Below, piece after piece: positions 11,351 through 24,235 of a stretch of DNA of 32,000 nt. The notes beneath the pieces are model-generated. The model searched no databases, had not been told where the DNA came from, and saw nothing but the letters and a program-made list of their open reading frames with translations. Position 1 is the stretch's first letter, and every line of letters starts with the position of its first letter. The stretch is from Candidatus Methanophagaceae archaeon (GTDB taxonomy: Archaea > Halobacteriota > Syntropharchaeia > Alkanophagales > Methanospirareceae). The stretch covers positions 400,444 to 432,443 of the forward strand of contig PQXB01000001.1 of NCBI GenBank assembly GCA_003194425.1. The letters are read 5' to 3'. The position numbers and the translations under genes were made by a program.

Positions 11351-11440
11351 TTCTTCTTCTCCTTCTTCTTCTACCCCTTCGTTTTTTTATTTTTATTTTC
11401 TGATTTTTTTTGCAATAAAAGCAGTACAACAAAACAAAAA

Positions 11441-12322
11441 ATGGAAGATACAAACATCGTGGCATTAAAAAAGAAGAAGAAGAGATTGTGGTGTCTCTCT
11501 ACGGTTATCGGAAGCAGTCTTGCAGCTATTTCGTATTACTTTAAGTTAGAGTTTGTCGCTCCCTACGACGCGTACATTTTAGCAGTCATCGCTGCATTTG
11601 TGCCTCCTGCGTTTTATTTTTACGGTGAGTCGAGAAGGATAAAGAAAGCGGAGAAGGCTTTTCCAGACCTGCTTACTAACCTTGCACAAGCAAAGAGAAC
11701 AGGGCTGCCACTGATTGAAGCGGTTAAACTCACAGCCTCGACAGAAGGAGAGTATGGGGTGCTTACAGAGGGAATAAAAACAATCTCCAGACAGCTGAAG
11801 TGGGGTGTTCCTTTTGAAGAGGGGTTGAGGGGATTTGCAAAGAAATATCCTAATTCGCAGATGATAAAACGGTCTATTGAACTCATCATAGAAGGATACA
11901 GGTCGGGCGGCGAGGTAGGAAAAGTTCTTCAAATTGCTGCAGACGATGTTTCGGAGTTGAAGGAGTTAGAAGAGAAGAGAATAGCGGATATGGGACTTTA
12001 TGTAGGAATATGCTACATCACTTTTCTTGTATTCCTGGGCGTTTTATTGGTCTTATACACCAACTACATTCCTGTAATGGTGGAAGCAGGGAAGAAAGTG
12101 GCGGAAACTGGCACAAGTAGAGGCGGGACAATGATTTATCAAGTGGATGTCAATAAATTGAAGATGATTTTATTTCATTGCGCGATCATTGAAGGGTTCT
12201 GCTCGGGATTTATGGCAGGTAAATTAGGAGAAGGGAAGGTCATTGCAGGATTGAAGCATGTTGTAATTTTTACTTCACTCGCGTTTGCGGCGTTCGGTGT
12301 GATTACTTACGCACAACTTTAG
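11441..12322 (+). CDS. Type IV pilus/Tad platform protein, single T2SS-F domain (TadC/FlaJ/PilC-like)
   Basis: AFPDLLTNLAQAKRTGLPLIEAVKLTA...GIKTISRQLKWGVPFEEGL is the T2SS-F domain pattern. Two TM helices lie before it and three after. ATG 11441 is chosen; the track N-terminal 62 codons are polypyrimidine F/S-rich and antisense to the nnr 5' end. Confidence 0.75.
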   Translation: MEDTNIVALKKKKKRLWCLSTVIGSSLAAISYYFKLEFVAPYDAYILAVIAAFVPPAFYFYGESRRIKKAEKAFPDLLTNLAQAKRTGLPLIEAVKLTASTEGEYGVLTEGIKTISRQLKWGVPFEEGLRGFAKKYPNSQMIKRSIELIIEGYRSGGEVGKVLQIAADDVSELKELEEKRIADMGLYVGICYITFLVFLGVLLVLYTNYIPVMVEAGKKVAETGTSRGGTMIYQVDVNKLKMILFHCAIIEGFCSGFMAGKLGEGKVIAGLKHVVIFTSLAFAAFGVITYAQL

Positions 12323-12347
12323 CTCCCACAACCACTCCTACATTTTC

Positions 12348-14525
12348 TTAAATATTTACTTTAATTGTGCTCTTTTTTAGAGTTAGTCTGACGCCTCTTC
12401 CGTTTCCGTAGAGGTTGAGTGTCACTCGTTTAGTAGCGGAAGAGGGTCCAGCGTAAGCGGAGTTAGTAGAGAGGTTGTAAAAAGAGGAGTTTAGTTCGGA
12501 GTTTTGGAGTTCCCGCTCGAACCGCCGTTTCCAAATTTCAGGGTGGTCTGTCGAGAGAGAGAGCGTTAGATTTTCGTAGTTTAAGTTCTCCGCAATCACT
12601 GCAGACCCTTCGAAAGAAGCACCCACCGAGACGGTCGTTGAGCCAGAGTAAGAGAACTCAGAACCATTTAGATTTATCAGGGAAATCTTTACTACGGGCG
12701 TGCCCCCAGTCGCGTTATCCTTGCTAATTTCAATGTTGGGCAGAGAAGAGCGGTCGTAGGGGTAAAGAATAAAACCGCCTCTGCGTTGGGATTTAACCAC
12801 CGTGCCGTGCTCGTAGGCGATTTCTTGGTTGGGGTAGAAGAGGTAGCCGGTTTTGAATTTGACGGTGCCTGACGAGTTTCCTATGAGGATGGGCGAAGTT
12901 GCGGATCTGTAATGGATTTTGACCCAGTGCAGAACCGGGGTCGTAGCGGGGTCGTCGGTGTGTAACTTTACGCAGTACTGAATGTAGCGGTGGCCGTCGG
13001 AGGCAGAGCGCAAACTGGAAATGTCAGTTCCGTTTGCGACCGCAGGGCAATTCACCCAAGGCGGGGCATCCCTCATATCAGAGTGCCAGTCTGTCCGCAC
13101 TTTCAAAACGAGGCTCTGCCCCTTCTCTTCATTTACTGTACCGTTCCACAGGATTTTGCCGTAGCAAGTGCTGCTGCTTCCGGTGTCGTAAAAGTCAGAA
13201 ACGAACCAGCCGTCCTGGTAGTGCAGAATTGAGGAGGTGTAGTTTCTTTGGTCTACGTAAATCCCGGCGGCTCCTCCTTCCCCGCCTTCCTGACCTGTTG
13301 CGTCTTCTCCCTCTTCTGCTCTTTTGTTACTCGGTAGCTGTGCAGAGTCGTTGTAGAAGATTTTTATTCTTCCTCCTGCTCCTCCTCCACCGCCTAAACC
13401 AGTTTTTCCTCCAGGTTTAAAACCTCCTGCCCCTCCAGCACCGCCGTTTGCTGTTAGCACTGCTGAATCTGAAAAAATAGAAACATTTTTCCCGCGAATC
13501 AGAATGCTGCCCCCACTGCCGCCACCTCCTCCTCCTCCTCCTTTATCAAAAGTAGACCCTTCGCCATCTAGACCACGGCTACCGTTAGCCGAGACGGTGC
13601 CAGAAATATTTACTCTCTCCGCCTCTAACCAGACCGCCCCGCCACCGTCCCCGCCTGCTCCTCCGCTTGCCCCTGCGAAGAATCCTTCTCCTGCTCCGCC
13701 TCCTCCACCGCCTGAACCTAAGTCAAAGGACAAGGAGGGGTCAGAGCCGTAAGAAATTCCACTTGAACCGGAGTTGTTGCCGCCGTCACCACCGCGCGCG
13801 CCGTAGCCTGCGCCACCGCCACCGTTGCCGAAAGAGCCTGGACTGCCGTAGCCCTGCCCACTACCTGTTTTACTTCCTCCTCCTCCCTTGTAACCTCTCC
13901 CGTCCGCGATTATTCTTGATTTATTGTCTATGGAAATGCTCTTTGCGATGATTTTCAAGCGGTTGAAGGAGACTTTCACAGTGCTGTTCTTTAATTTAAC
14001 CCAGTCGTAGTACTTCTCGCCTTCTAACCACCAGTTAGGTTCGTCTACTAAATCCAGGACCTCTTCGTGGAGGATTGAAAGTTTCAGCTCGTTAGCGCTG
14101 GTTTCTACGCAGTGAGAAGTGCCGTTAAATTCCGGCTGCTCCCACATTCCAACAGTTCCAGCTGGGAAAACTTCTTCAGTCGGGACGCTGACATTGAATA
14201 TTGAGGCGTTCGGAGAGAAGACGACAGACGAGCCGGGCGGGGATAAACCAATGATGGGAATTCTGTCGGGCGACATTTTTATGGGCGTCGTTCCTGCTCC
14301 TCCTTCTCCTTGCTCGCCTGCTAACACCACTCCGTCAATCAGCGATTTCCAGTCTGAAAACGCGTCTACGACCTCAGCAGTGTGCCTGGCTTCAAAGTCC
14401 TTTGTCCAGACCGGGATTTGAGAGGAGAAATAAATGGCTGTTGCAGAAATGGCAATGCCCAGCAGTAGGACGACCCCGATAACGACCGATTGTGCGTCTT
14501 TGGCGCGCCGAAAGTCTTTTCTCAT
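12348..14525 (-). CDS. Pilin-signal (class III-like) extracellular protein with polyglycine beta-helix-like core
   Basis: The N-terminus RRAKDAQSVVIGVVLLLGIAISATAIYF resembles archaeal prepilin signals (charged leader, small residue, Q/S, hydrophobic helix). The central ~200 aa has G-runs alternating with short beta-like segments (AVWLEAERVNISGTVSANG; SILIRGKNVSIFSDSAVLTANG; RIKIFYND). Many N-x-S/T sequons. Starts 33 nt downstream of the FG-GAP gene. Confidence 0.65.
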   Translation of the reverse strand: MRKDFRRAKDAQSVVIGVVLLLGIAISATAIYFSSQIPVWTKDFEARHTAEVVDAFSDWKSLIDGVVLAGEQGEGGAGTTPIKMSPDRIPIIGLSPPGSSVVFSPNASIFNVSVPTEEVFPAGTVGMWEQPEFNGTSHCVETSANELKLSILHEEVLDLVDEPNWWLEGEKYYDWVKLKNSTVKVSFNRLKIIAKSISIDNKSRIIADGRGYKGGGGSKTGSGQGYGSPGSFGNGGGGAGYGARGGDGGNNSGSSGISYGSDPSLSFDLGSGGGGGGAGEGFFAGASGGAGGDGGGAVWLEAERVNISGTVSANGSRGLDGEGSTFDKGGGGGGGGSGGSILIRGKNVSIFSDSAVLTANGGAGGAGGFKPGGKTGLGGGGGAGGRIKIFYNDSAQLPSNKRAEEGEDATGQEGGEGGAAGIYVDQRNYTSSILHYQDGWFVSDFYDTGSSSTCYGKILWNGTVNEEKGQSLVLKVRTDWHSDMRDAPPWVNCPAVANGTDISSLRSASDGHRYIQYCVKLHTDDPATTPVLHWVKIHYRSATSPILIGNSSGTVKFKTGYLFYPNQEIAYEHGTVVKSQRRGGFILYPYDRSSLPNIEISKDNATGGTPVVKISLINLNGSEFSYSGSTTVSVGASFEGSAVIAENLNYENLTLSLSTDHPEIWKRRFERELQNSELNSSFYNLSTNSAYAGPSSATKRVTLNLYGNGRGVRLTLKKSTIKVNI

Positions 14526-14558
14526 TTTTACTTCTTCTCTTCAGTCTACTCAGTCTGC

Positions 14559-16361
14559 TCACTTCAGTTTGCAGCGGGCAGCCAAGAAACGAATGTAGAA
14601 GGTTAGGGCGAGGAGCAGAAGAACTGCAACGAGTGGGAACGCGACTGCCGGGAACGCAGGCACGGGTGCTATTCTCAGACTGCTGTCAATCGGATCGCCC
14701 TCGTCCCAGCGCCCGTTTTGGTTCGTGTCAACAACGATGTTGTAGTCGCCAGCGCGAAGCGGGGACGACCAAATGCTTACAGCCGGCCAAATTCCGCCCC
14801 AAAGTCCGCCCGAAGAGTTGGTGGCCGCCAGTTCCGCGGTTCCGTTCTCAGAAACATCTGTGAGCAGGTCTCCTGCCTTCCACTCTTCTTTGGGCTTGTG
14901 AGAGACGACAAAGATTTTTACGGTCGTGCTGGCAGGCAGGTTCCCGGCGTAACAGTAGACAGATTCGCTGGTCTTGAAAATGTTCTTCTCGGTTCCTGCG
15001 TCGTCTGAAGAATTGACGAAGGTTGGTTTTCCGAGCAGTAGGTAGACTTTCCCCGCCCAGTTTCCCCTCTCGGAATTAAAAGGAGCGGCGATTAAAAAGT
15101 CGTCAGCGTAGTCGCCGTTGCAGTCGCCTGCACCTGAAACTGACCAGCCAGAACAGTTGCCTTTACCGTCGCCAAGTAAGAAAGCGTCTGCGTCTGTTGC
15201 GAGCGGTGTGTTCTGTCTCCAGCCCGTGCTCTTGCCCAAAATTAAGTACACCTGCCCTGCTAAACCTCCAGCGTCAGAATTAAAAGGAGCACCGATCAAG
15301 AAGTCGTCGAAGCCGTCACTGTTGCAGTCCCCCGCTCCGGAGACCGAGTAACCAGCACCGTCGTTAGTACTTTCGCCCACGAAAGAGGCGCTGGCATTTG
15401 AAAGGTTTTCGTCCCACCAGCCCGTGTTGTTACCAAGAATCAGGTACGCTTTTCCTACTTTACCTCCACCCTTAGGAGCACCGATCAAGAAGTCGTCGAA
15501 GCCGTCACTGTTGCAGTCGCCTGTACCTGAAACAGACCACCCAGCACCGTCGTTAGTACTTTCGCCCACGAAAGAGGCGCTGGCATTTGAAAGGTTTTCG
15601 TCCCACCAGCCCGTGCGGTTACCAAGAATCAGGTACACCTTTCCTTTACTACTGCCGTGACTAGGAGCACCGATCAAGAAGTCGTCGCAGTCGTCGCCGT
15701 CAACATCGCCCGCTCCGGAGACCGAGTAACCAGCCTCGTCGTTAGTACTTTCGCCAAGGAAGGAAGCGTCAGCGGTTGAAAGCGGTGTGTCCTGTCTCCA
15801 GCCCGTTTCCTTTCCCAAAATCAGGTAGACTTTTCCCGCCTTACTACCTTTTTCATTGTTGTAGCAGTCGCCGATCAAGAAGTCGTCGAAGCCGTCACTG
15901 TTGCAGTCCCCCGCTCCGGAGACCGAGTAACCAGCAAGGTCACCCGCGGGTTCACCTACGAAAGAGGCGCTGGCATTTGAAAGGTTCTTCTCCCACCTGC
16001 CTGCGCTGTTACCAAAAATCAGGTACACCTTTCCTTTACCAGGACCACCGTCGCCAGGAGCGCCGATCAAGAAGTCGTCGTAGCCGTCGCCGTTAACATC
16101 TCCCACACCTGAGACGGAGTTACCTGCAACATCGCCTGCTCCCTCTCCCAAGAAGAAGGCGTCTGCAGCGCTTGAAAGGTTTTTGTTAGGCTCCCAGGCA
16201 GAGGCGTTCGAAATTACGAAACCTAACACTAACAAACCCAACACCAAATTAAGCCCTCTCGCTCTTACGCTTCTCTCTTTTGCTTCAGCCCTTACAGACT
16301 TTTTGTCGCCCTTTTCCCGCACTTCCCCTCTTCCCCTACCCCTCTTCCTCTTTTCTCCCAT
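14559..16361 (-). CDS. FG-GAP/integrin-alpha-type beta-propeller surface protein with C-terminal anchor
   Basis: At least six repeats of G[DY]SVSGAGD[VC]N[GS]DG[FY]DDFLIGAP...GKVYLI[LF]G. N-terminal signal-like helix LNLVLGLLVLGFVISNASA. C-terminal Ig-like module, then RIAPVPAFPAVAFPLVAVLLLLALTFYIRF. Confidence 0.85.
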   Translation of the reverse strand: MGEKRKRGRGRGEVREKGDKKSVRAEAKERSVRARGLNLVLGLLVLGFVISNASAWEPNKNLSSAADAFFLGEGAGDVAGNSVSGVGDVNGDGYDDFLIGAPGDGGPGKGKVYLIFGNSAGRWEKNLSNASASFVGEPAGDLAGYSVSGAGDCNSDGFDDFLIGDCYNNEKGSKAGKVYLILGKETGWRQDTPLSTADASFLGESTNDEAGYSVSGAGDVDGDDCDDFLIGAPSHGSSKGKVYLILGNRTGWWDENLSNASASFVGESTNDGAGWSVSGTGDCNSDGFDDFLIGAPKGGGKVGKAYLILGNNTGWWDENLSNASASFVGESTNDGAGYSVSGAGDCNSDGFDDFLIGAPFNSDAGGLAGQVYLILGKSTGWRQNTPLATDADAFLLGDGKGNCSGWSVSGAGDCNGDYADDFLIAAPFNSERGNWAGKVYLLLGKPTFVNSSDDAGTEKNIFKTSESVYCYAGNLPASTTVKIFVVSHKPKEEWKAGDLLTDVSENGTAELAATNSSGGLWGGIWPAVSIWSSPLRAGDYNIVVDTNQNGRWDEGDPIDSSLRIAPVPAFPAVAFPLVAVLLLLALTFYIRFLAARCKLK

Positions 16362-16373
16362 TTTCTTTTCTCC

Positions 16374-16453
16374 CTTTTCTTTCTCAACACTTAACGCAGC
16401 AACAATTTACACACTTTTCTTTCTCAACACTTAACGCAGCAACAATTTACACA
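16374..16453. repeat. Perfect 40-nt tandem direct repeat in the divergent control region
   Basis: cttttctttctcaacacttaacgcagcaacaatttacaca occurs at 16374-16413 and again at 16414-16453. An AT-rich TATA-like run (atatttatattattataaag) follows immediately. Confidence 0.9.
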
Positions 16454-16662
16454 TATTTATATTATTATAAAGTTTATAAAGAATTTGAAAAGCATAAAAA
16501 AATGGCAGTGAGTGAGCAGCACACCGAACCAAGGCAGAGAAAATGCGAACTAAAAGAGATGTAAAATGGGGAAAGTAGGAAGAAATGGAGAAAGTAGGAA
16601 GACTTGGAAGACGCAGGCGACACAAGCGACGCAGCAAAATAAAATGCTTTTTAAAAAAAATT

Positions 16663-16670
16663 AGGAGGTG
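16663..16670 (+). promoter_or_regulatory. Shine-Dalgarno-like site for pilin gene 1
   Basis: aggaggtg lies 13 nt upstream of ATG 16684, preceded by an ttaaaaaaaa A/T run. Confidence 0.5.
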
Positions 16671-16683
16671 AAAACGAAAAAAA

Positions 16684-17280
16684 ATGAACACGAACAAAAA
16701 ATTCGATGGAAAAGAAGAGAACGGCAGAAGAAACAGTGGTAGTTGTAAAGAGAGCAGTAGAAGACTTAGAAAAGACGAGCGGGCAGTCTCGCCGGTTATT
16801 GGAATTATTCTGATGATCGCGATCACAGTCGTAATCGCGGCGGTCGTGGCTGCTTTCGCTTACGGTCTGATCGGCAACGTAGACACAGCACCAAGTGCGG
16901 CACTGGTCGTTGATGGCGCTCAGGAAGGGAAACCAGAGTTTACCGTGCTTCATCACGGCGGAGAAATAATAACTCAAGCGTTTAGAGAGAATGTCCAAGG
17001 CGACTCTTGCTGGGATGAAATGGAAGTAAAACTAAACGGGCGGACTTTGACTTTCACTGACGGCAGGGTTGACGAAATATTTTTGAACGGTACGCCTTCA
17101 GTAGAGTCCCCGGCGGGTACAGCAACGGGGTGGGGAACTACGGTGTTTGCACCAGGCGACGAAGTGAAAATTACCCTAGATAGCAGCACTACACCACCAT
17201 TAACACTCAAGTCGGGCGACACAATTGCTGTAGTTTTCGTACCATCGGGTGACATAATGCAGCGAGTGACGGTGCCGTAA
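16684..17280 (+). CDS. Archaeal type IV pilin (Pilin_N/DUF1628-type N-terminus), paralog 1
   Basis: DERAVSPVIGIILMIAITVVIAAVVAAFAYGLIG is the conserved archaeal pilin N-terminal domain. The C-terminus SGDTIAVVFVPSGDIMQRVTVP is shared with paralog 2. Confidence 0.85.
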   Translation: MNTNKKFDGKEENGRRNSGSCKESSRRLRKDERAVSPVIGIILMIAITVVIAAVVAAFAYGLIGNVDTAPSAALVVDGAQEGKPEFTVLHHGGEIITQAFRENVQGDSCWDEMEVKLNGRTLTFTDGRVDEIFLNGTPSVESPAGTATGWGTTVFAPGDEVKITLDSSTTPPLTLKSGDTIAVVFVPSGDIMQRVTVP

Positions 17281-17335
17281 GCCGTGCAATAAAAAGCCGT
17301 GTAGCAAAAGACCGTAAAAAGTTGTAAGGGAGAAG

Positions 17336-17395
17336 AGAAGAAGAGGTGCTTCTTCTGCACTGCTCCCTTTTTTTATTTTTTTTTTTTCTTTTTAA
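17336..17395 (+). terminator. Hairpin plus long oligo-T terminator after pilin 1
   Basis: agaagaag (17336-17343), loop aggtg, cttcttct (17349-17356), followed by ccctttttttattttttttttttcttttt. Confidence 0.55.
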
Positions 17396-17398
17396 GAA

Positions 17399-17926
17399 AT
17401 GAGAGACAAGCGATTTTTTGTTTTTGAAAAAGGGAAGGGCGGGAGAAAGAGAGAGAGTAAGAGAGCGGTCTCTCCTGTAATTGGAACTATTTTAATGATC
17501 GTGGTAGTGGTCGTAATCGCGGTGGTCGTGGCTACTTTTTCTTACGGCTTGATCGGCAGAGAAATCCAAACCCCGAGAGTGACTTTGCTCATTGAAGGCG
17601 TTAAAGCTGGCAGTAAAAATGTAACAGTGGTTCACTACGGCGGAGAACCGCTAACAGAAGCATTTAAGAAACCAGCCACTCAGAACGGCTCCTGCTGGGA
17701 TTCGGTTCTGGTAAAAATTAACGGTATGACTTTCGATGCAAAGCAGGGCACGGTCGCGTTAAACGGCACTTGGGACCCTGCCGAGTGGGGGACTACGCGT
17801 TTTGAACCTGCCGACGAACTGAAGCTTGCTCTCTCTGAAACTGAGAAGCTTAAATCCGGGGATTCAATCACAGTGGTTTTCATTCCAACAGGCGACGTCC
17901 TGCAGAGAGTGAAGGTGCAGGAGTGA
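17399..17926 (+). CDS. Archaeal type IV pilin (Pilin_N/DUF1628-type), paralog 2
   Basis: SKRAVSPVIGTILMIVVVVVIAVVVATFSYGLIG. Conserved core (VVHYGGEPLTEAF...SCWD...KINGMTF) and tail SGDSITVVFIPTGDVLQRVKVQE are parallel to paralog 1. Confidence 0.85.
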   Translation: MRDKRFFVFEKGKGGRKRESKRAVSPVIGTILMIVVVVVIAVVVATFSYGLIGREIQTPRVTLLIEGVKAGSKNVTVVHYGGEPLTEAFKKPATQNGSCWDSVLVKINGMTFDAKQGTVALNGTWDPAEWGTTRFEPADELKLALSETEKLKSGDSITVVFIPTGDVLQRVKVQE

Positions 17927-17948
17927 AGGTGCAGGAGTGAAGGTGCAG
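17907..17948 (+). repeat. 14-nt tandem repeat x3 spanning the pilin-2 stop codon
   Basis: gagtgaaggtgcag occurs at 17907-17920, 17921-17934 and 17935-17948. The stop TGA (17924-17926) lies in copy 2. Confidence 0.9.
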
Positions 17949-17949
17949 T

Positions 17950-18030
17950 AAGGAAAAGAAAAGGAAAAGAAAAGGAAAAGAAAAGGAAAAGAAAAGGAAA
18001 AGAAAAGGAAAAGAAAAGGAAAAAGGAAAG
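17950..18030 (+). repeat. 11-nt purine satellite (aaggaaaagaa), 6 perfect copies plus a partial
   Basis: Read directly. Units start at 17950, 17961, 17972, 17983, 17994 and 18005, with a degenerate seventh. Located upstream of ftsZ. Confidence 0.9.
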
Positions 18031-18049: not shown

Positions 18050-18103
18050 ACTTTTATTTACAGGTATAAATAGAGATAAAAGAGAGAAGAGGAGGAAGAG
18101 GAG
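18050..18103 (+). promoter_or_regulatory. Putative ftsZ promoter (TATA-like) and purine-rich leader
   Basis: cttttatttacaggtataaatag with tataaata at 18065-18072, ~32-39 nt upstream of ATG 18104. A ggagg lies at 18091-18095. Confidence 0.4.
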
Positions 18104-19291
18104 ATGGAGAGAATGTTAGGAAATAATGCAGGGATCGTAGAGGGCGAGGGGGATTGTTTCGGGGTGCCGAGCATTTCAATTGTCGGCGTAGGCGGGGCAG
18201 GAAACAATTCAATGGACAGACTGGAGCAGTTAGGCGGGCTGAACAACATAGACAGAATCGCCGTGAACACCGACAAACTGCACCTGGATTCGATAACCTG
18301 CAAGAAGAAAATCTTGATTGGAAAATCGCTTACACACGGATTAGGAGCAGGAGGCTCGCCGGAAATCGGCAGGAAAGCCGCGGAAATCGACAGGCAGGAG
18401 TTGGAGCAGTTGCTGGCGGGCAGGAACTTTGTCTTTCTCACTGCAGGGATGGGTGGAGGAACAGGTACGGGAGCGTCGCCGGTAGTCGCGAGTGTAGCGA
18501 AGGAGGCGGGTGCGATCGTGGTCGCGATGGTCTCTTTCCCGTTTGAAGCCGAGCGGATAAGACGACAAAGGGCAGCAGACGGGATTGAGGAACTCCGAAA
18601 CACCACCGACACGGTCATCGTCTTGGAGAACGACAAACTCCTGAAATACTCGGGCAACCTGCCGGTGAACGACGCCTTCAAGACGATGGATATGCTGATT
18701 ACAAGCACGATTCAGGGCATTGCCGAGACGGTAACAAAACCCTCGCTCGTGAACCTCGACTTTGCAGACCTCAAGGCGGTAATGTCCGAAGGTGGTGTCG
18801 CAGTGATGCTCATCGGCGAGACACGGAAATCAGAGAACAAGCCCGAGGCGGTCGTCTCCGACGCACTCAGCCACCCGCTTTTAGAAGCGGACTACCGCGG
18901 GGCGAAGGGCGCTCTTATTCACATCACCGGCGGGTCTGACCTCACGATGAAGGAGACGACGGACATCGTAGAACTGCTCACCTACGACCTGAACCCCGAC
19001 GCGAATGTAATTTGGGGCGCGCGGATAAACGATGACTACAACGGGCGGGCGCGGGTGACCGCGATAATGACCGGCGTAGAGCCGAAGTGGATTTTCGGCG
19101 GGCGGTACGAAGTCCGAGAAGAGAAAGAGCGAGAGACTACCAATCTATGGAAATTAAATACAAGTAGAGACAGAGGAATCGGCAGAGGAGGTAAAGGTAG
19201 CAAAGGAGGTAAAGGTAGCGGAGGAGGTAGCGGAGGAGGTAGCGGCGACGGAGAGGGAGGAATTAAAAATATTATTTCCTTCATCCACTGA
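18104..19291 (+). CDS. ftsZ: Cell division tubulin homolog FtsZ
   Basis: IVGVGGAGNNSMDRL, GLGAGGSPEIGRKAA, and the tubulin signature GMGGGTGTGASPVVA. Ends in a low-complexity G/K/S-rich C-terminal tail (GGKGSKGGKGSGGGSGGGSGDGEGG). Confidence 0.9.
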   Translation: MERMLGNNAGIVEGEGDCFGVPSISIVGVGGAGNNSMDRLEQLGGLNNIDRIAVNTDKLHLDSITCKKKILIGKSLTHGLGAGGSPEIGRKAAEIDRQELEQLLAGRNFVFLTAGMGGGTGTGASPVVASVAKEAGAIVVAMVSFPFEAERIRRQRAADGIEELRNTTDTVIVLENDKLLKYSGNLPVNDAFKTMDMLITSTIQGIAETVTKPSLVNLDFADLKAVMSEGGVAVMLIGETRKSENKPEAVVSDALSHPLLEADYRGAKGALIHITGGSDLTMKETTDIVELLTYDLNPDANVIWGARINDDYNGRARVTAIMTGVEPKWIFGGRYEVREEKERETTNLWKLNTSRDRGIGRGGKGSKGGKGSGGGSGGGSGDGEGGIKNIISFIH

Positions 19292-19350
19292 AAAACAAAG
19301 AGAGAAAAAAGTATAAACTTATTTAAATAAGTACAAGAATTATTGTCAGA

Positions 19351-20268
19351 ATGGCAAAGACAAACAAGGCAGCGGGTTTGTTGTATCGGGGCGAATTTAC
19401 CTACTACGTGGGTTCAGCGATTTTTTCGGCGGGCATCGCACTCTTGGCACTCGGCACTGCGTTTATCGTCTACTACAAAATACACTACGGCTCCGAGCCA
19501 GAGCAGATTCTGCTTTCTACCCTTTTTATGGGCGTCGGCACTACGCTGGTTTTGGTGGGCGTAAATTTGATGATGCGGCAGACACGGTTCGGGTATTTTA
19601 TCGTGGCTGCGAGCGCTTCTCTCTCCCTGCTTGCTCTCCTCATTTTTAAACTCAACTACCCGCAGGACTGGTACTACCCGCTAATAAGTTACGGGCTCAC
19701 TCTTTACATCTCGGGGTTTTTGGTGCTGCTCGGGAACGCGTTTGCGAATGTGATTCTGTGGCTGATTGAGAGCAGGCCTGCGGAAATGCTGAGTAGTGTC
19801 TTGGGCAGGCGGCGGGAGGAGAAGAAATACAGCAACGAAGAAATAGAGCGGGACATTGAAGAAGCGACGAGGAAGAGCGTTGAACTCTCCGCCACGAAAC
19901 TGCGGTTTAAGGACTTGGGGGCTGTGCAGAATGTGCGACTCGGAAAGGCGTTCCGCGAGTCGCGGGGCAAGACAGTTAGGTTCAAAGACAGCATAAAAGA
20001 AACCGAGAGCTTGGGAAAAATAAAGAGGCCCGTGGAGCGAGTGCGGTCTGGCTCGGCGGAGGTTGAGAATATTTCAAAGAGCCTGGAAGCGGTCTTGAAA
20101 GAAGGAGCAGTTCAGAAGGGACGGGGTAGAGGCAGCGGCAGGGGAGGTCTGGGTCAGAGAGGACTGGGTCAGGGAGGACGCTTTGAGGAGTTGAAGGATT
20201 TTATTAGTGGCGTTGTAGAGAAGTTTTGCTCTGTTCTTGGGCTGAAGAGGAAGGGCAAAAACATTTAA
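19351..20268 (+). CDS. Four-TM membrane protein with a long charged/disordered cytoplasmic tail
   Basis: Four hydrophobic helices (YVGSAIFSAGIALLALGTAFIVYY; LLSTLFMGVGTTLVLVGVNLMM; YFIVAASASLSLLALLIF; LISYGLTLYISGFLVLLGNAFANVILWLI). Then ~165 aa of K/E/R-rich sequence ending GRGRGSGRGGLGQRGLGQGGRFEELKDFISGVVEKF. A 14-nt perfect palindrome cttatttaaataag (19318-19331) sits ~20 nt upstream of the ATG. Confidence 0.6.
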   Translation: MAKTNKAAGLLYRGEFTYYVGSAIFSAGIALLALGTAFIVYYKIHYGSEPEQILLSTLFMGVGTTLVLVGVNLMMRQTRFGYFIVAASASLSLLALLIFKLNYPQDWYYPLISYGLTLYISGFLVLLGNAFANVILWLIESRPAEMLSSVLGRRREEKKYSNEEIERDIEEATRKSVELSATKLRFKDLGAVQNVRLGKAFRESRGKTVRFKDSIKETESLGKIKRPVERVRSGSAEVENISKSLEAVLKEGAVQKGRGRGSGRGGLGQRGLGQGGRFEELKDFISGVVEKFCSVLGLKRKGKNI

Positions 20269-20325
20269 TTTAATCAGAGAAAATAGAGTAAAGCAAAAAA
20301 AGGACGAAAAGAAGGAGAGAAAAAA

Positions 20326-21402
20326 ATGGCAAAAGGATTGGATGTTGGGACGATGAACATTATTTGTTCAGAGAGAGAAGACGAGGATGTGGTTTTTACG
20401 CAGCAGCGGAACGCGTTTCTGGAACTCGAGTCTGGGGACTTGACGAAGACGATGTTGGACAGTGCGAACGTGCTTTACATTGAGAAGGACGGTCAGATTT
20501 ATGTGCTGGGCGAGGACGCGTTTAGGTTCGCGACGATCTTCGGAAAAGGGGCACGACGGCCGATGAAACGCGGGATAATTAGCCCTGAAGAGAAGGACGC
20601 GATCCCGATGATTCAACTAATCGTGGAGCGGGTTCTGGGCGAGCCGAATTATCGCAATGAGGTGCTCTGCATTTCTTCGCCCGCCAATCCGATTGACTTG
20701 GACATAAACACGCTGTACCACAAGAAAATGATGGAGGCGCTGGCAGGGCGAATGCACTACGAGACGAGCGTGATTGACGAGGGCTTGGCTGTGGTTTATT
20801 CAGAACTCGGAAGCTCCAGCTTCACGGGTCTCGGAATAAGCATCGGCGCGGGGCTGACGAATGTGACGCTTGCCTATTTAGCCACGCCTGTGATGTCGTT
20901 CAGCATCGGCAGGGGCGGGGATTGGATTGACGAGCAGGTCTCGAGCACGACAGGACTCTCGAAGGAGCACGTCTGCGCGACGAAGGAAAGCGGGTTCAAG
21001 ATGGGCTTGGGCTCGGAGGTTGAGTTCGGCAGTCCCGAGGGGGCGCTCTCGATTTACTACGACGCTTTGATGACTTACCTGATAAAGAACTTGAACAGGA
21101 GGCTTGCGGAGATTACGCCGCCGAAGGTGGAGTTCCCGGTTGCACTCGCGGGTGGAAGTGCGACGCCAAACGGGTTCTTGAGAATGTTCGAGAAGAAGTT
21201 GCGAGACGCGAAACTTCAGATTGACATCTCAAATGTGAAGCGTGCCAAAGACCCCCTCTACTCGGTCGCACGGGGCTGCCTCATCGCCGCGAGGACGCAG
21301 GAAGGCGAAGATGTGAACAGTGGCGGTGGCGGTAGCGGGAGTGGTAGCGGGAGTGGTAGTGGTAGTGGTAGCGTGAAGACCACCGAGGAGAAAAAGGCAT
21401 GA
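20326..21402 (+). CDS. Actin-fold (ASKHA) ATPase, MreB/ParM/FtsA-like
   Basis: Phosphate-1 GLDVGTMNI. RRPMKRGIIS (compare MreB RPM[KR]DGVI). Phosphate-2 GLGISIGAGLTNV. SIGRGGDWIDE. Adenosine motif VALAGGSA. DPLYSVARGCLIAA near the C-terminus, then a (GS)n tail. Confidence 0.7.
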   Translation: MAKGLDVGTMNIICSEREDEDVVFTQQRNAFLELESGDLTKTMLDSANVLYIEKDGQIYVLGEDAFRFATIFGKGARRPMKRGIISPEEKDAIPMIQLIVERVLGEPNYRNEVLCISSPANPIDLDINTLYHKKMMEALAGRMHYETSVIDEGLAVVYSELGSSSFTGLGISIGAGLTNVTLAYLATPVMSFSIGRGGDWIDEQVSSTTGLSKEHVCATKESGFKMGLGSEVEFGSPEGALSIYYDALMTYLIKNLNRRLAEITPPKVEFPVALAGGSATPNGFLRMFEKKLRDAKLQIDISNVKRAKDPLYSVARGCLIAARTQEGEDVNSGGGGSGSGSGSGSGSGSVKTTEEKKA

Positions 21403-21532: not shown

Positions 21533-21628
21533 TTGAGCGAGAAGTACCTTGCGGAAGGGAAGGAGCTGTTGAGTAAAGCGGACTTGGAGCAGGCGTCGGA
21601 GAAGTTCTGGGGCGCTGCGGCTTTAAAA
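21533..21628 (+). pseudogene. N-terminal fragment of a PaREP1/HEPN-like gene
   Basis: TTG-initiated SEKYLAEGKELLSKADLEQASEKFWGAAALKNL matches, from memory, the helix pair with the SEK.WGAAA motif of archaeal PaREP1-type proteins. The similarity stops at the A/T hairpin (21632-21650). The last 43 nt (21586-21628) recur at 23867-23909, as part of the 74-nt repeat. Confidence 0.35.
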
Positions 21629-21659
21629 AACCTTTCTTTAAAAAAGAAAGCTTTACCAA
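21586..21659 (+). repeat. 74-nt repeat, copy 1 (gene fragment + 8-bp/3-nt-loop hairpin)
   Basis: ggagcaggcgtcggagaagttctggggcgctgcggctttaaaaaacctttctttaaaaaagaaagctttaccaa is identical to 23867-23940. Hairpin: ctttcttt / aaa / aaagaaag at 21632-21650. Confidence 0.95.
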
Positions 21660-21785
21660 AGAAAAAGGAAGTGAATGTAGAAATGAAAAGAAGTAGAGGG
21701 GAAATAGTTGGGTCCGCCTTACTGGCGGCGTTTGCAGTGGTGGTGGTTAGTGCCGGAGTACAGCGTCTGCGTGCCGCTAACGGCA

Positions 21786-22073
21786 ATGCCTCTCTCGGTG
21801 CCAGCGGGGTACAAGGAGACGCTGGAGTACAGTTTCGCAGTGCCGGAATTGGGTGCGAAATGGTTCAGCAACGCGTTCCTCGTGCAGTTGGCGGAGACAG
21901 AGGCGGGCGGGGGAGAAGGAGCAGGTGGAGGAGGAGAGGTCTTGGATGCGGACGCTGCGTGCTGGATTTACCGTCCTGCGGGCAGGGGAGTAGAAGCGGC
22001 GCAGACGGCAGTAGGAGAAGCGGAAGTAGAAATCGCAGACGAGATAAGGAGAGCAGTAGAAGGGGTAAAGTAG
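21786..22073 (+). CDS. Small acidic protein, EYSFAVP family, copy A (95 aa from ATG 21786)
   Basis: MPLSVPAGYKETLEYSFAVPELGAKWFSNAFLVQLAETEAGGGEGAGGGGEVLDADAACWIYRPAG...EVEIADEIRRAVEGVK. The frame is supported by synonymous differences versus copy B. The stop TAG is followed by a hairpin and T-run. Confidence 0.6.
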   Translation: MPLSVPAGYKETLEYSFAVPELGAKWFSNAFLVQLAETEAGGGEGAGGGGEVLDADAACWIYRPAGRGVEAAQTAVGEAEVEIADEIRRAVEGVK

Positions 22074-22102
22074 AGTCTCTAAAAAGAGGCTCTCTTTTTT
22101 TT
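22073..22102 (+). terminator. Hairpin + T8 terminator-like element after copy A
   Basis: gagtctc (22073-22079), loop taaaaa, gaggctc (22086-22092; 7 bp with one G.U), then tctttttttt. Confidence 0.5.
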
Positions 22103-22119
22103 AGGAGAGGGAGAGAAGA

Positions 22120-22359
22120 ATGGCAATCGTAGAAGTGGATGAGGAATACAAAATACCATTAAAGCAGGTCAGCGTTAGCTTTAACATAAAACCTGCGGAT
22201 CGTTTTTTGGTACGAGTAGAGACGAGAGAGAAGATAGTTTTGGAGAAGATAAAGCAGAAAGATTCGCTTATAGAGATTATTGAAAATCCAGGACACACGG
22301 ATCGAAGAGGGGCAGCCCTCGATTTAAAAGAGCTTGAGGAAGAGCTGTGGGGGAGATGA
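22120..22359 (+). CDS. vapB: AbrB/SpoVT(MazE)-type antitoxin, VapB-like
   Basis: 79 aa. MAIVEVDEEYKIPLKQVSVSFNIKPADRFLVRVETREKIVLEKI fits the swapped-hairpin AbrB pattern. The stop overlaps the downstream PIN gene start (ATGA at 22356-22359). Confidence 0.7.
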   Translation: MAIVEVDEEYKIPLKQVSVSFNIKPADRFLVRVETREKIVLEKIKQKDSLIEIIENPGHTDRRGAALDLKELEEELWGR

Positions 22360-22772
22360 AAGTTTTTGTAGATTCCAATATCTTTATATTCGCGAATATC
22401 GCGGAATATCCAGAGCAGGAGACTGCAAAGGAGAAATTGAAGTGGCTGATAAATAAATCCTGCACGATTTTAGTCAATCCGATTATCGTTTCCGAAGTGC
22501 ATTACAAACTTTCCAGACTATTAAGTGCGGAAGAGGCGTACGAACGAACATTGAAAATAATTTCTTCGGGACACGTTGAGTACGTGCCGTTGGGGAAAGG
22601 GACGGTGCTAAAAGCGATTGAGCTCAGTCGTTCAAGGAAAATCAGGATAAACGATGCTCTGATCGCTCAACACGCGTTGGACTTGAATGCAGAGGGTTTG
22701 GTAACCGATAACACGAAAGATTTCGTTAAAGTGGAAGGATTGAAGGTTATCAAATTGAGAGAGGACGAATAA
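22356..22772 (+). CDS. vapC: PIN-domain toxin VapC
   Basis: MKVFVDSNIFIF (Asp-1), IIVSEVHY (Glu), INDALIAQHAL (Asp), LVTDNTKDF (Asp). ATG 22356 is preferred over track GTG 22347 because of the ATGA coupling. Confidence 0.85.
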   Translation: MKVFVDSNIFIFANIAEYPEQETAKEKLKWLINKSCTILVNPIIVSEVHYKLSRLLSAEEAYERTLKIISSGHVEYVPLGKGTVLKAIELSRSRKIRINDALIAQHALDLNAEGLVTDNTKDFVKVEGLKVIKLREDE

Positions 22773-22799
22773 GCTCGTAAATGGGGAACAGAAGACCGG

Positions 22800-23123
22800 T
22801 TGGCGTTGCAGTGGTGGTGGTTAGTGCCGGAGTACAGCTTTGCGGTGCCGGATTTGGGTGCGAAGTGGTTCAGCAACGCGTTCCTCGTGCAGTTGGCGGA
22901 GACAGAGGCGGGCGGGGGAGAAGGAGCAGGTGGAGGAGAGGTCTTGGATGCGGACGCTGCGTGCTGGATTTACCGTCCTGCGGGCAGGGAAGCGGGAGCG
23001 GTGCCAGTAGCAGTAGGAGAAGTGGAAGTAGAAATCGCAGACGAGATAAAAGAGGCGATTGAAAAGTGGAGTAGGGCTTCTGAAAAGAGGCTCTCTTCTT
23101 TTTTATTTTTTCCTAAAGCATAA
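22800..23123 (+). CDS. Small acidic protein, EYSFAVP family, copy B (start uncertain: TTG 22800 or GTG 22824)
   Basis: ...VPEYSFAVPDLGAKWFSNAFLVQLAETEAGGGEGAGGGEVLDADAACWIYRPAG...EVEIADEIKEAIEKW. Near-identical at DNA level to copy A apart from a 69-nt and a 3-nt in-frame indel. The stop differs, so the ORF reads through a degenerate terminator copy. Confidence 0.55.
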   Translation: MALQWWWLVPEYSFAVPDLGAKWFSNAFLVQLAETEAGGGEGAGGGEVLDADAACWIYRPAGREAGAVPVAVGEVEVEIADEIKEAIEKWSRASEKRLSSFLFFPKA

Positions 23124-23487
23124 CACTTTCAGAGAAACTTTTAAAATGAGGGTCTCCTGTTAGAACCTTCACGCCTTTAAATCGTGCAGAGGCAAGCACG
23201 AACGCATCTGCGAGACCAAAGTCTTGCATCGTCTTCTTCGCCTCGGCGTGAATTTTCGCAGCCTCTACTGCAATCTGCTCGTCAATCGGAATGACTGCAC
23301 ACCGCTTCACGATGAAGTTCCTCCTCTCTTCTGCCCTTCCGTCGGTTCTTAAAGATTTGGAGAATATTTCTGCGATGATGATTGGAGAAGTGTAAAGTTG
23401 CACCTCGGTTTCAACGACCTCTTTCACCCTCTTCCCCTCCTCCGTGCCCATAAAATATTCTATCCAGGCGAACGAATCAAGCAGCAT
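23113..23487 (-). CDS. vapC: PIN-domain toxin VapC (second module)
   Basis: MLLDSFAWIEYFMGT (Asp-4), IIIAEIFSK (Glu), LADAFVLASA (Asp), LTGDPHFKSF (Asp). Confidence 0.85.
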   Translation of the reverse strand: MLLDSFAWIEYFMGTEEGKRVKEVVETEVQLYTSPIIIAEIFSKSLRTDGRAEERRNFIVKRCAVIPIDEQIAVEAAKIHAEAKKTMQDFGLADAFVLASARFKGVKVLTGDPHFKSFSESVML

Positions 23488-23497
23488 TTACTTTATT

Positions 23498-23710
23498 CTA
23501 TCCTATCCTATCCTCACGGTCTCTCAAGTCTGACTTCTCTGTCCTCGCCATCGTCCCAAAAAGACTTTTCTTCGCTTTAACTTTGAAAAGAGCATCATAT
23601 AAGATTTCGTTTATCTTTTCTGACACCCCTTCTTCGCCCGACTCTTTTTTTAACGCCAGATATATTTCTTCCCTCAATTTAATCGCCTTTCGAACATACA
23701 TCGTTTTCAC
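23498..23710 (-). CDS. vapB: Small antitoxin (RHH/CopG-like VapB) paired with the second PIN toxin
   Basis: 70 aa, ending 10 nt upstream of the PIN gene. KAIKLREEIYLALKKESGEEGVSEKINEILYDAL fits strand-helix-helix antitoxins that accompany archaeal VapC. Confidence 0.6.
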   Translation of the reverse strand: MKTMYVRKAIKLREEIYLALKKESGEEGVSEKINEILYDALFKVKAKKSLFGTMARTEKSDLRDREDRIG

Positions 23711-23740
23711 CTATTCTTTTTACTTGGACATTAATAAAAG

Positions 23741-23974
23741 TTGGCGATTCTTAAAAATTACGACGAGCCTATCGAGTACAGTTTCGCAGTGCCGGATTTG
23801 GGTGCGACGTGGTTCAGCAACGCGTTCTTCGTGCAGTTGGTGGATACAGAGGAAGGAGCGGGAGGAGGAGCAGGCGTCGGAGAAGTTCTGGGGCGCTGCG
23901 GCTTTAAAAAACCTTTCTTTAAAAAAGAAAGCTTTACCAACAACTTTTTTACCTTCGGTAAAAACCTTGACTAA
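23741..23974 (+). pseudogene. EYSFAVP family copy C, truncated and fused to the 74-nt repeat
   Basis: Only 23774-23866 (EYSFAVPDLGATWFSNAFFVQLVDTEEGAGGG) is homologous to copies A and B. At the shared ggagcagg microhomology it switches into repeat copy 2 (23867-23940). The N-terminal 11 codons overlap the vapB2 promoter region. Confidence 0.6.
23867..23940 (+). repeat. 74-nt repeat, copy 2
   Basis: Identical to 21586-21659. Followed by a 78-nt copy-specific insert (23941-24018) that carries a TATA-like ctttatatag. Confidence 0.95.
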
Positions 23975-24043
23975 ACTTTACTGAAGAAAAATAATACTTT
24001 ATATAGAGTTATAGAGTGAAAGAAAAAGGAAGTAAAAGTAGAA

Positions 24044-24193
24044 ATGAAAAGAAGTAGAGGGGAAATATTTGGGTCCGCCCTTGTGGCGGCGTTTGTAGTG
24101 GTGGTAGCGGTGTTTCCGACTGCGGTCTCGGTCTCGGTGACCGCAGCAGAGAGAGGAGCAGAGGGGAGAGGGAGAGAAGAAAGGCAATCGTAG
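24044..24193 (+). CDS. Hydrophobic micro-ORF (49 aa), intact twin of the leader at 21683
   Basis: MKRSRGEIFGSALVAAFVVVVAVFPTAVSVSVTAAERGAEGRGREERQS. TATA-like tttatata lies ~40 nt upstream. 24019-24108 is roughly 90% identical to 21658-21747 by eye (about seven mismatches in ~90 nt). It is below the 60-aa track cutoff. Confidence 0.4.
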   Translation: MKRSRGEIFGSALVAAFVVVVAVFPTAVSVSVTAAERGAEGRGREERQS

Positions 24194-24235
24194 AAGTGGA
24201 TGAGGAATACCATTTTGTAGATTCTGAAGTCTTTT
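24165..24235 (+). pseudogene. Decayed vapB'-vapC' remnant
   Basis: 24165-24210 matches 22104-22149 (the vapB1 5' end) with ATG mutated to AAG. After a 7-nt slip deletion it jumps to ttttgtagattc, which matches the vapC1 5' end (22363-22374), and then diverges. Confidence 0.7.

Follow-up and report, generated by a model that had tools for sequence, protein, structure and literature searches.

A CdpA-like membrane protein gene paired with a volactin-family actin gene downstream of ftsZ in a Candidatus Methanophagaceae archaeon

Volactin, CdpA and the genes of the window

The closest described relatives of the genes studied here are two cytoskeletal systems of Haloferax volcanii, built on the actin homologue volactin and the membrane protein CdpA. 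We analyzed a 32,000-nucleotide (nt) stretch of DNA from a Candidatus Methanophagaceae archaeon (contig PQXB01000001.1; hereafter the window) in which an ftsZ gene is followed by genes for a CdpA-like membrane protein and a volactin-family protein. Volactin (VolA, HVO_2015) was described in 2024 as forming filaments that are dynamically unstable, span the cytoplasm and contact the membrane only at their tips, and it promotes the transition from rod- to disk-shaped cells (Schiller et al., 2024, PMC10869688). The filaments assemble independently of the FtsZ1 ring and do not localize to it, their dynamic instability was described as ParM-like, and volactin-binding factors were postulated (PMC10869688). 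Volactin is the sole actin described in H. volcanii. CdpA (HVO_0739) consists of a four-helix N-terminal membrane domain (residues 17-149), a disordered linker (150-284) and a small C-terminal domain (285-328) (Liao et al., 2025, PMC12126565). It is found in complex with FtsZ2, SepF and CdpB. With SepF and the PRC-barrel proteins CdpB1/2 as partners, it anchors and organizes the FtsZ1/FtsZ2 ring (PMC12126565). A single sentence in the same study remarks that a CdpA-like paralogue with four transmembrane (TM) helices, HVO_2016, lies next to volactin (PMC12126565). HVO_2016, VolA and CetZ5 (HVO_2013) are all up in disk-shaped Haloferax cells. The volactin family, the CdpA/CdpA-like family and the HVO_2015/HVO_2016 adjacency are already known. 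New here are the wide spread of the pairing among archaeal phyla and the closeness of the two genes, the set of tail motifs that characterizes the paired membrane proteins, the clade-specific juxtaposition with ftsZ, probably of the FtsZ2 type (plus CetZ and PRC-barrel genes), and a parallel between GrpE and Hsp70 in the same membrane-protein family.

The three open reading frames (ORFs) lie on the + strand with intergenic gaps of 59 nt and then 57 nt, in exact agreement with an earlier reading of this DNA made without database searches (the sequence-only reading). They encode FtsZ (18104-19291, 395 amino acids (aa); Pfam Tubulin, FtsZ_C and TIGR00065), the CdpA-like membrane protein (19351-20268, 305 aa; PF23600, also DUF7139/CdpA_N) and the volactin-family actin homologue, a volA orthologue (20326-21402, 358 aa; PF25216). 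Gene identities were taken from Pfam and NCBIfam hidden Markov model (HMM) scores against curated cutoffs; intergenic signals were read straight from the sequence, the host being an archaeon, and functions were inferred. Matches to family models back the reality of all three genes.

The CdpA-like and volactin genes as a conserved pair

The actin-fold protein matches the volactin model PF25216 at 412.7 bits (cutoff 35, E=1.6e-123), with its residues 1-322 covering positions 1-321 of the 321-position model. The nucleotide-binding motifs that the sequence-only reading had called complete are invariant in an alignment with 14 diverse homologues: D6, G8 and T9 (phosphate 1), G170, S172, G174, A175, G176 and T178 (phosphate 2), and G276, G277 and S278 (adenosine). 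An FtsA-like or MreB-like partner of FtsZ, as that reading had suggested, did not emerge. MreB models scored about 28-31 bits against cutoffs of 293-365 (TIGR00904, 28.7 versus 365.75; PRK13927, 27.7 versus 293), and no FtsA or PilM family matched among the Pfam and NCBIfam hits at E<=0.01. The identity as MreB was rejected on these scores and the full-length volactin match. The best relatives in the PDB are MreB fragments, with a top E of 1.9e-4 over residues 76-207 only. An AlphaFold2 (AF2) model from a 14-sequence alignment was poor, with a mean predicted local distance difference test (pLDDT) score of 46.9, and the family placement rests on the HMM scores. By these scores the protein is a full-length volactin and not an MreB, FtsA or PilM. 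It shares 60-85% identity with homologues from Methanosarcinales, ANME-1, Thermoplasmatota and Archaeoglobi, and ~50% with the Halapricum protein. A Gly/Ser-rich C-terminal extension is specific to the window organism.

The neighboring membrane protein matches PF23600 at 39.6 bits (cutoff 30) over residues 17-136. All ten homologues tested, from five lineages, passed the same cutoff, with the Halapricum protein at 153 bits, and newer precomputed annotation of the contigs names this family CdpA_N. The AF2 model, built from a 32-sequence alignment, contains the four TM helices proposed earlier (residues 8-41, 50-75, 81-102 and 110-151; pLDDT ~66-86). They form a domain of residues ~8-151 (19372-19803, +), and the positive-inside rule places both termini in the cytoplasm. 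Four TM helices are followed by a long linker and a small C-terminal element, an architecture like that of CdpA.

The cytoplasmic tail had been described as a disordered, K/E/R- and RGG-rich region. The RGG stretch is real but specific to the organism, and the tail is more than a disordered region, as it carries conserved motifs and is predicted to be partly helical. In an alignment of 72 homologues four elements are conserved across phyla: Y-T/S-D/N-E-E-I-x-R-D-I-E-E-A after TM4, RVKD, G..G.D.AS..L, and a C-terminal helix with the pattern K-G-R-F-x-x-h-K. The first of these, the juxtamembrane motif YSNEEIERDIEEA (19828-19866, +), is near-invariant among the 72 homologues, lies in a predicted helix (residues 162-183) and appears to be the hallmark of a volactin-linked subfamily. 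Since the EEIxRDIEEA motif is common to the volactin-adjacent Halapricum proteins and other haloarchaeal representatives, we provisionally assigned the window protein, from comparison with these haloarchaeal members, to an HVO_2016-type subfamily rather than to CdpA proper. The C-terminal amphipathic helix GRFEELKDFISGVVEKFCSVL (20176-20238, +; predicted helix 276-296, low pLDDT) is a candidate volactin-binding or membrane-binding peptide. Between these elements, residues ~258-276 form an RGG/Gly-rich insertion (20122-20175, +) with a tandem repeat of period 15 at 20144-20179. It is not a family feature. It occurs only in the window organism and its 99%-identical strains, and its occupancy is 0 in all 71 locus homologues.

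The two genes belong together well beyond the window. A scan of one genome per species (185,579 species genomes) yielded 79 volactin loci, which were searched with tblastn and ORF clustering. A CdpA-like gene lies directly upstream of volactin on the same strand in 71 of them. Seven of the other eight have little or no upstream contig sequence, and the remaining one, L070, is a third paralogue within a single metagenome-assembled genome (MAG). The pair is present in Methanosarcina, Methanohalobium, Argoarchaeum, ANME-1, Syntrophoarchaeum, Thermoplasmatota, Archaeoglobaceae and Halapricum, and the linkage reaches at least four archaeal classes. Where spacing could be measured (61 loci), it ranged from -8 to +5 nt in 19, the genes overlapping in Methanosarcina and Archaeoglobi, and a Shine-Dalgarno-like sequence precedes volactin in 42. 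In the window such a sequence, AAGGAGAG, stands at 20312-20319 (+), 7 nt before the volactin ATG. The CdpA-like and volactin genes are a deeply conserved and often translationally coupled pair. The proposal of a partner system of a membrane protein and an actin-fold ATPase therefore stands, as a gene pair conserved across several archaeal phyla with a membrane protein of the CdpA family.

In several MAGs, from Archaeoglobaceae and an unclassified archaeon, volactin occurs at two or three loci (L018/L041/L070; L027/L043; L026/L044; L028/L032). Most of the duplicate copies have a CdpA-like gene of their own, L070 being the one without, and the module therefore appears to have been duplicated as a unit.

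The wider family of the membrane domain provides a parallel. An exhaustive search of representative sequences for PF23600 relatives returned 54 clusters only. In many of them the same membrane domain is fused to a full GrpE domain and in some to a CHAD domain. Hsp70 is an actin-fold ATPase and GrpE is its partner, and one of the PF23600-GrpE fusion genes lies immediately 5' of an Hsp70 gene. These observations on GrpE, Hsp70 and CHAD come from L089:873-1910 (+) and L089:2002-3036 (+) and from entries P0259, P0261, P0264, P0265, P0268, P0274 and P0278, and also P0271 and P0277. In hhalign comparisons with the GrpE-fused paralogues, the TM domain of the window protein aligned with 99.9% probability, whereas the volactin-linked tails and the GrpE tails were unrelated (probability 0.06%). 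By analogy, this independent parallel supports the idea that the partner of the tail would be the actin-fold ATPase encoded next door. More generally, the findings point to CdpA_N as a membrane module that can be reused for cytoskeletal and ASKHA proteins. The study that described CdpA makes no mention of a membrane-anchored GrpE or of a link to Hsp70 (Liao et al., 2025, PMC12126565).

The ftsZ gene and its position upstream of the pair

The first gene encodes a genuine FtsZ, as had been read from its sequence: besides the Pfam Tubulin and FtsZ_C matches, it scores 386.1 bits against the ftsZ equivalog TIGR00065 (cutoff 295.2), and it contains the GMGGGTGTG signature. The protein (18104-19291, +) is made up of a GTPase domain, FtsZ_C, an organism-specific Gly-rich linker and the C-terminal peptide IKNIISFIH. 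Ahead of the gene is a putative promoter and ribosome-binding region (18053-18095, +), with a TATA-like TTTTATTTACAGGTATAAATA at 18053-18073, AGGAGG at 18090-18095 and the ATG at 18104. Two tandem arrays, perfect or near-perfect, lie just 5' of this region (17901-18023). One is a 14-nt unit repeated 3.4 times at 17901-17948, overlapping the 3' end of a pilin gene (17399-17926), and the other is the 11-nt unit AAGGAAAAGAA repeated 6.7 times at 17950-18023.

Motifs and gene context make the window FtsZ a probable member of the archaeal FtsZ2 family. F/L-G-x-P stands directly ahead of the G-box in 112 of 121 orthologues, and many orthologues end in ..DIIPIIRR. The published peptides of H. volcanii FtsZ2 are '..DDQFGDPR' and '..NNGLDVIR', the second of which the orthologue C-terminus resembles; the N- and C-tail motifs of the orthologues fit these peptides and not that of H. 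volcanii FtsZ1. Identity to Methanocaldococcus jannaschii FtsZ1 is only 45%. The orthologue of Ca. Syntrophoarchaeum caldarius (60% identical) is overlapped upstream by a ribbon-helix-helix (RHH) gene, which the window lacks. An HVO_0582-ftsZ2 arrangement and an association of ftsZ2 with parD have been reported, and the S. caldarius layout resembles both. We also considered a dedicated third FtsZ paralogue and dropped it, because identity declines smoothly, from 77-87% in ANME-1/Methanophagales to 62% in Archaeoglobi and 55% in Methanomicrobiales, and these orthologues share the same tail motifs. By sequence comparison the window FtsZ is an ordinary orthologous division FtsZ and not a special extra paralogue.

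The position of ftsZ next to the pair is much less widespread than the pair itself. With tblastn and a tubulin-family HMM, we searched within 6 kb of volactin at all 79 loci. FtsZ or CetZ was found at four, two from Methanophagales (L003 and L005), one labelled "Methanosarcinales" (L006) and one from a Syntrophoarchaeum sp. (L072), and neither at the other 75. The order ftsZ, CdpA-like gene, volactin is also present in the window and in three strain variants of its organism. In the volactin tree the loci with ftsZ fall in one clade, within which L001 and the Argoarchaeum group lack it. Approached from the other side, none of six FtsZ2-centered loci (S. caldarius, Ca. Methanoxibalbensis, one Archaeoglobi MAG and three ANME-1 genomes) has the pair downstream of FtsZ2. 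The three-gene neighborhood on which the sequence-only reading had built is thus confined to one clade. The starting point of that reading, SepF as the FtsZ tether of archaea, is out of date in that CdpA, CdpB and CdpC are known as well.

Other genes accompany ftsZ2 in these relatives. Genes for an uncharacterized ~297-aa protein, a ~230-aa PRC-barrel (CdpB-like) protein and a 384-aa CetZ form a conserved set that divergently flanks ftsZ2 in ANME-1 and Syntrophoarchaeum (L003:656-3564 (-), L005, L072, L087:3016-5809 (-) and L088:2967-5808 (-)); the window lacks it. This set is a more constant neighbor of ftsZ2 in ANME-1 than the CdpA-like/volactin pair. On the far side, an archaeal RNase P RNA gene lies immediately 3' of volactin in relatives that have all three genes (L003:7091-7349, L006:7102-7376 and L072:5633-5895 (+)), and none was detected anywhere in the window.

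The gap between ftsZ and the membrane protein gene carries signals of its own. A TATA-like box, TTTAAATA, at 19322-19329 (+), 22-29 nt ahead of the CdpA-like ATG, is followed by AATTATTGTC. L003, L005 and L006 have the same layout, a TATA box ~25-30 nt before the CdpA-like ATG and then the conserved AATTATTGTC, and in all three long oligo-T runs come right after the ftsZ stop codon. The T-runs and the TATA box fit termination after ftsZ and an independent promoter for the module. The box at 19322-19329 probably serves as a promoter dedicated to the module, from which a leaderless or short-leader mRNA would start, and ftsZ is probably transcribed separately from the CdpA-like/volactin module. 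The earlier caution that co-transcription was not assured holds for this gap. In the second gap, a weak AT-rich element further upstream of the Shine-Dalgarno-like sequence is a possible internal promoter.

All three proteins of the window contain Gly-rich tandem-repeat insertions without counterpart in homologues: in the FtsZ linker (19182-19245), the RGG stretch of the CdpA-like tail (20144-20179) and the (GS)n tail of volactin (21331-21373). A nearby DUF7289 protein (12348-14525) is Gly-rich as well. Together these suggest a lineage-wide tendency toward GGN-repeat expansion in coding regions.

Proposed membrane anchoring of volactin and its alternatives

We propose, with moderate confidence and from comparison of sequences and gene order, that the functional unit is the two-gene module, in which the CdpA-like protein would serve as membrane anchor or regulator of volactin filaments, while ftsZ2 would be a lineage-specific and separately transcribed neighbor. 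The four-helix domain would fix the CdpA-like protein in the membrane, and the tail motifs (EEIxRDIEEA, RVKD and the C-terminal GRF..hK helix) would bind volactin and thereby act on filament ends at the membrane, as nucleator, cap or anchor. Such an anchor would explain why volactin filaments contact the membrane only at their tips in Haloferax. ftsZ2 may have come to sit 5' of the module in an ancestor of the ANME-1/Syntrophoarchaeum-related clade. In mechanism the model would be analogous to the domains by which CdpA tethers the FtsZ2/SepF/CdpB ring and to the ParR-type adaptors that hold the ends of ParM filaments.

Comparison with the described systems shows how far these analogies extend. 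Like H. volcanii volactin, the window protein has a full-length family match, the ASKHA motifs, an adjacent CdpA-like four-TM gene and a tubulin-family gene nearby (CetZ5 in Haloferax, FtsZ2 here). Unlike it, the window protein belongs to a non-halophilic, ANME-1/Syntrophoarchaeum-related host and has the Gly/Ser-rich extension. The membrane protein shares with CdpA and HVO_2016 the four N-terminal TM helices, the long cytoplasmic tail and the small C-terminal element, and with HVO_2016 also the position next to volactin. CdpA proper, by contrast, anchors the FtsZ ring and does not lie by volactin, whereas the window protein carries the EEIxRDIEEA motif; the window gene differs from Haloferax HVO_2016 in also adjoining ftsZ2, which is unreported for Haloferax. 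In ParM/ParR and MamK/MamJ-type systems the gene for an actin-like filament protein is adjoined by one for an adaptor, whose task is to hold the filament ends or to attach cargo. The likeness is one of mechanism, an actin-fold polymer gene beside a gene for a small adaptor with a terminal peptide. There is no sequence relationship, and the CdpA-like protein, unlike a DNA-binding or magnetosome adaptor, is itself integral to the membrane. FtsZ-FtsA and FtsZ-SepF tethering resemble the locus in that a gene for a tubulin homologue stands beside genes for a membrane-associated protein and an actin-fold protein, but the actin-fold protein has no FtsA match, the transcription units are probably separate and the adjacency is not conserved.

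Several observations weigh against this model or leave room for others. The tail is weakly modelled: its AF2 helices (residues 162-183, 215-223, 236-254 and 276-296) are of low confidence, and homology of the volactin-linked tails to GrpE or to a known actin-binding domain was not detected. The FtsZ2 assignment is a matter of motifs and gene context. The order of FtsZ2 and the module persists in several genera although the flanks differ, and selection, instead of shared descent, could be the cause. A CdpA-HA pull-down from Haloferax was enriched in volactin (log2 fold change 2.5, p=0.06) (PMC12126565), and volactin filaments that bridge sister cells depolymerize just ahead of the end of cytokinesis. 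Because of the last two observations, a link of volactin to division is possible.

Such a link is at the center of an alternative in which the three genes form a true triad. Here the CdpA-like protein would be a hub: its CdpA_N domain, with SepF/CdpB, would connect to the FtsZ2 ring and its tail to volactin filaments, so that tubulin- and actin-type polymers would be coordinated at the division site in this lineage. The domain is indeed common to haloarchaeal CdpA, and the pull-down is in keeping with a hub. So are the retention of the gene order in the window, its three strain variants and L003, L005, L006 and L072 despite differing flanks, the PRC-barrel (CdpB-like) and CetZ genes in the neighborhoods of L003, L005 and L072, and the position of Haloferax volA two genes from the co-regulated cetZ5. 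We nevertheless consider the triad rather unlikely. The adjacency is limited to one clade, is lost in the close relatives L001 and the Argoarchaeum group and is absent from the six FtsZ2-centered loci; ftsZ is set off from the module by terminator-like T-runs and a TATA box of the module's own; and the assembly of volactin filaments in Haloferax does not depend on the FtsZ1 ring (PMC10869688). Haloarchaea moreover have a separate CdpA for division and the HVO_2016 paralogue by volactin, which suggests divided labor. In another alternative the membrane protein would be the lineage's own functional CdpA, anchoring the FtsZ2 ring, and volactin a mere conserved neighbor with an unrelated role in shape or mechanics. 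The small number of PF23600 clusters means that non-halophiles may have a single copy that does the job of CdpA, and the window protein has both the CdpA_N domain and the CdpA-like architecture of four TM helices, linker and small C-terminal element. Its EEIxRDIEEA motif, however, marks the volactin-linked subfamily, haloarchaeal members included, the fact that the gene overlaps volactin in Methanosarcina and Archaeoglobi speaks for a common function, and across genomes the gene tracks volactin and not ftsZ2. We regard this explanation as quite improbable.

The genes 5' of ftsZ gave rise to a further alternative, a role of the actin-fold protein with a type IV pilus, either as a PilM-like partner, already raised in the sequence-only reading, or as an assembly ATPase. 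A type IV pilus-like locus does occupy 11255-17926 of the window, with a T2SSF/PilC-like membrane protein (11255-12322), the DUF7289 protein (12348-14525, -), an FG-GAP repeat protein (14559-16361, -) and two Pilin_N proteins (16684-17280 and 17399-17926). The other 79 volactin loci contain no homologue of any of these pilus genes, and this removes the pilus connection. Relatives have other genes upstream, either the set of the ~297-aa protein, PRC-barrel and CetZ genes or PmbA-like genes; the actin-fold protein itself has no PilM family match and a full-length volactin match. With family scores and synteny both against it, a PilM-like partner is ruled out for practical purposes, and we give it almost no weight.

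Directly 3' of volactin (21533-24210), direct repeats of ~75-250 nt lie ~1 kb apart (21586-22047, 22806-23049, 23770-23940 and 24019-24210), and genes for PIN toxins and small antitoxin-like proteins stand in between (22120-22772 and 23113-23710). In L090, a strain variant with identical volactin, a PaREP1-like gene is followed straight by a GTPase gene, and the repeat/PIN region is therefore taken to be a strain-variable cassette array.

The proposed membrane-anchor role has consequences beyond the window. The conserved pairing nominates HVO_2016-type proteins as the missing membrane anchor or regulator of volactin, and does so in the genetically tractable Haloferax. The ftsZ2 adjacency adds little to this, because it is clade-specific and probably on a separate transcript, but it marks a cytoskeleton and division gene cluster (CetZ, PRC-barrel, FtsZ2, CdpA-like and volactin) in uncultured methane- and alkane-oxidizing archaea. 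A broader and more speculative possibility, which we think unlikely, is that PF23600 (CdpA_N) defines a general class of archaeal membrane adaptors, with CdpA serving FtsZ2/SepF, HVO_2016-type proteins serving volactin and the GrpE fusions serving Hsp70, and that the FtsZ2 ring is physically coupled to actin-like filaments in the ANME-1/Syntrophoarchaeum clade. If true, this would amount to prokaryotic tubulin-actin crosstalk at the membrane.

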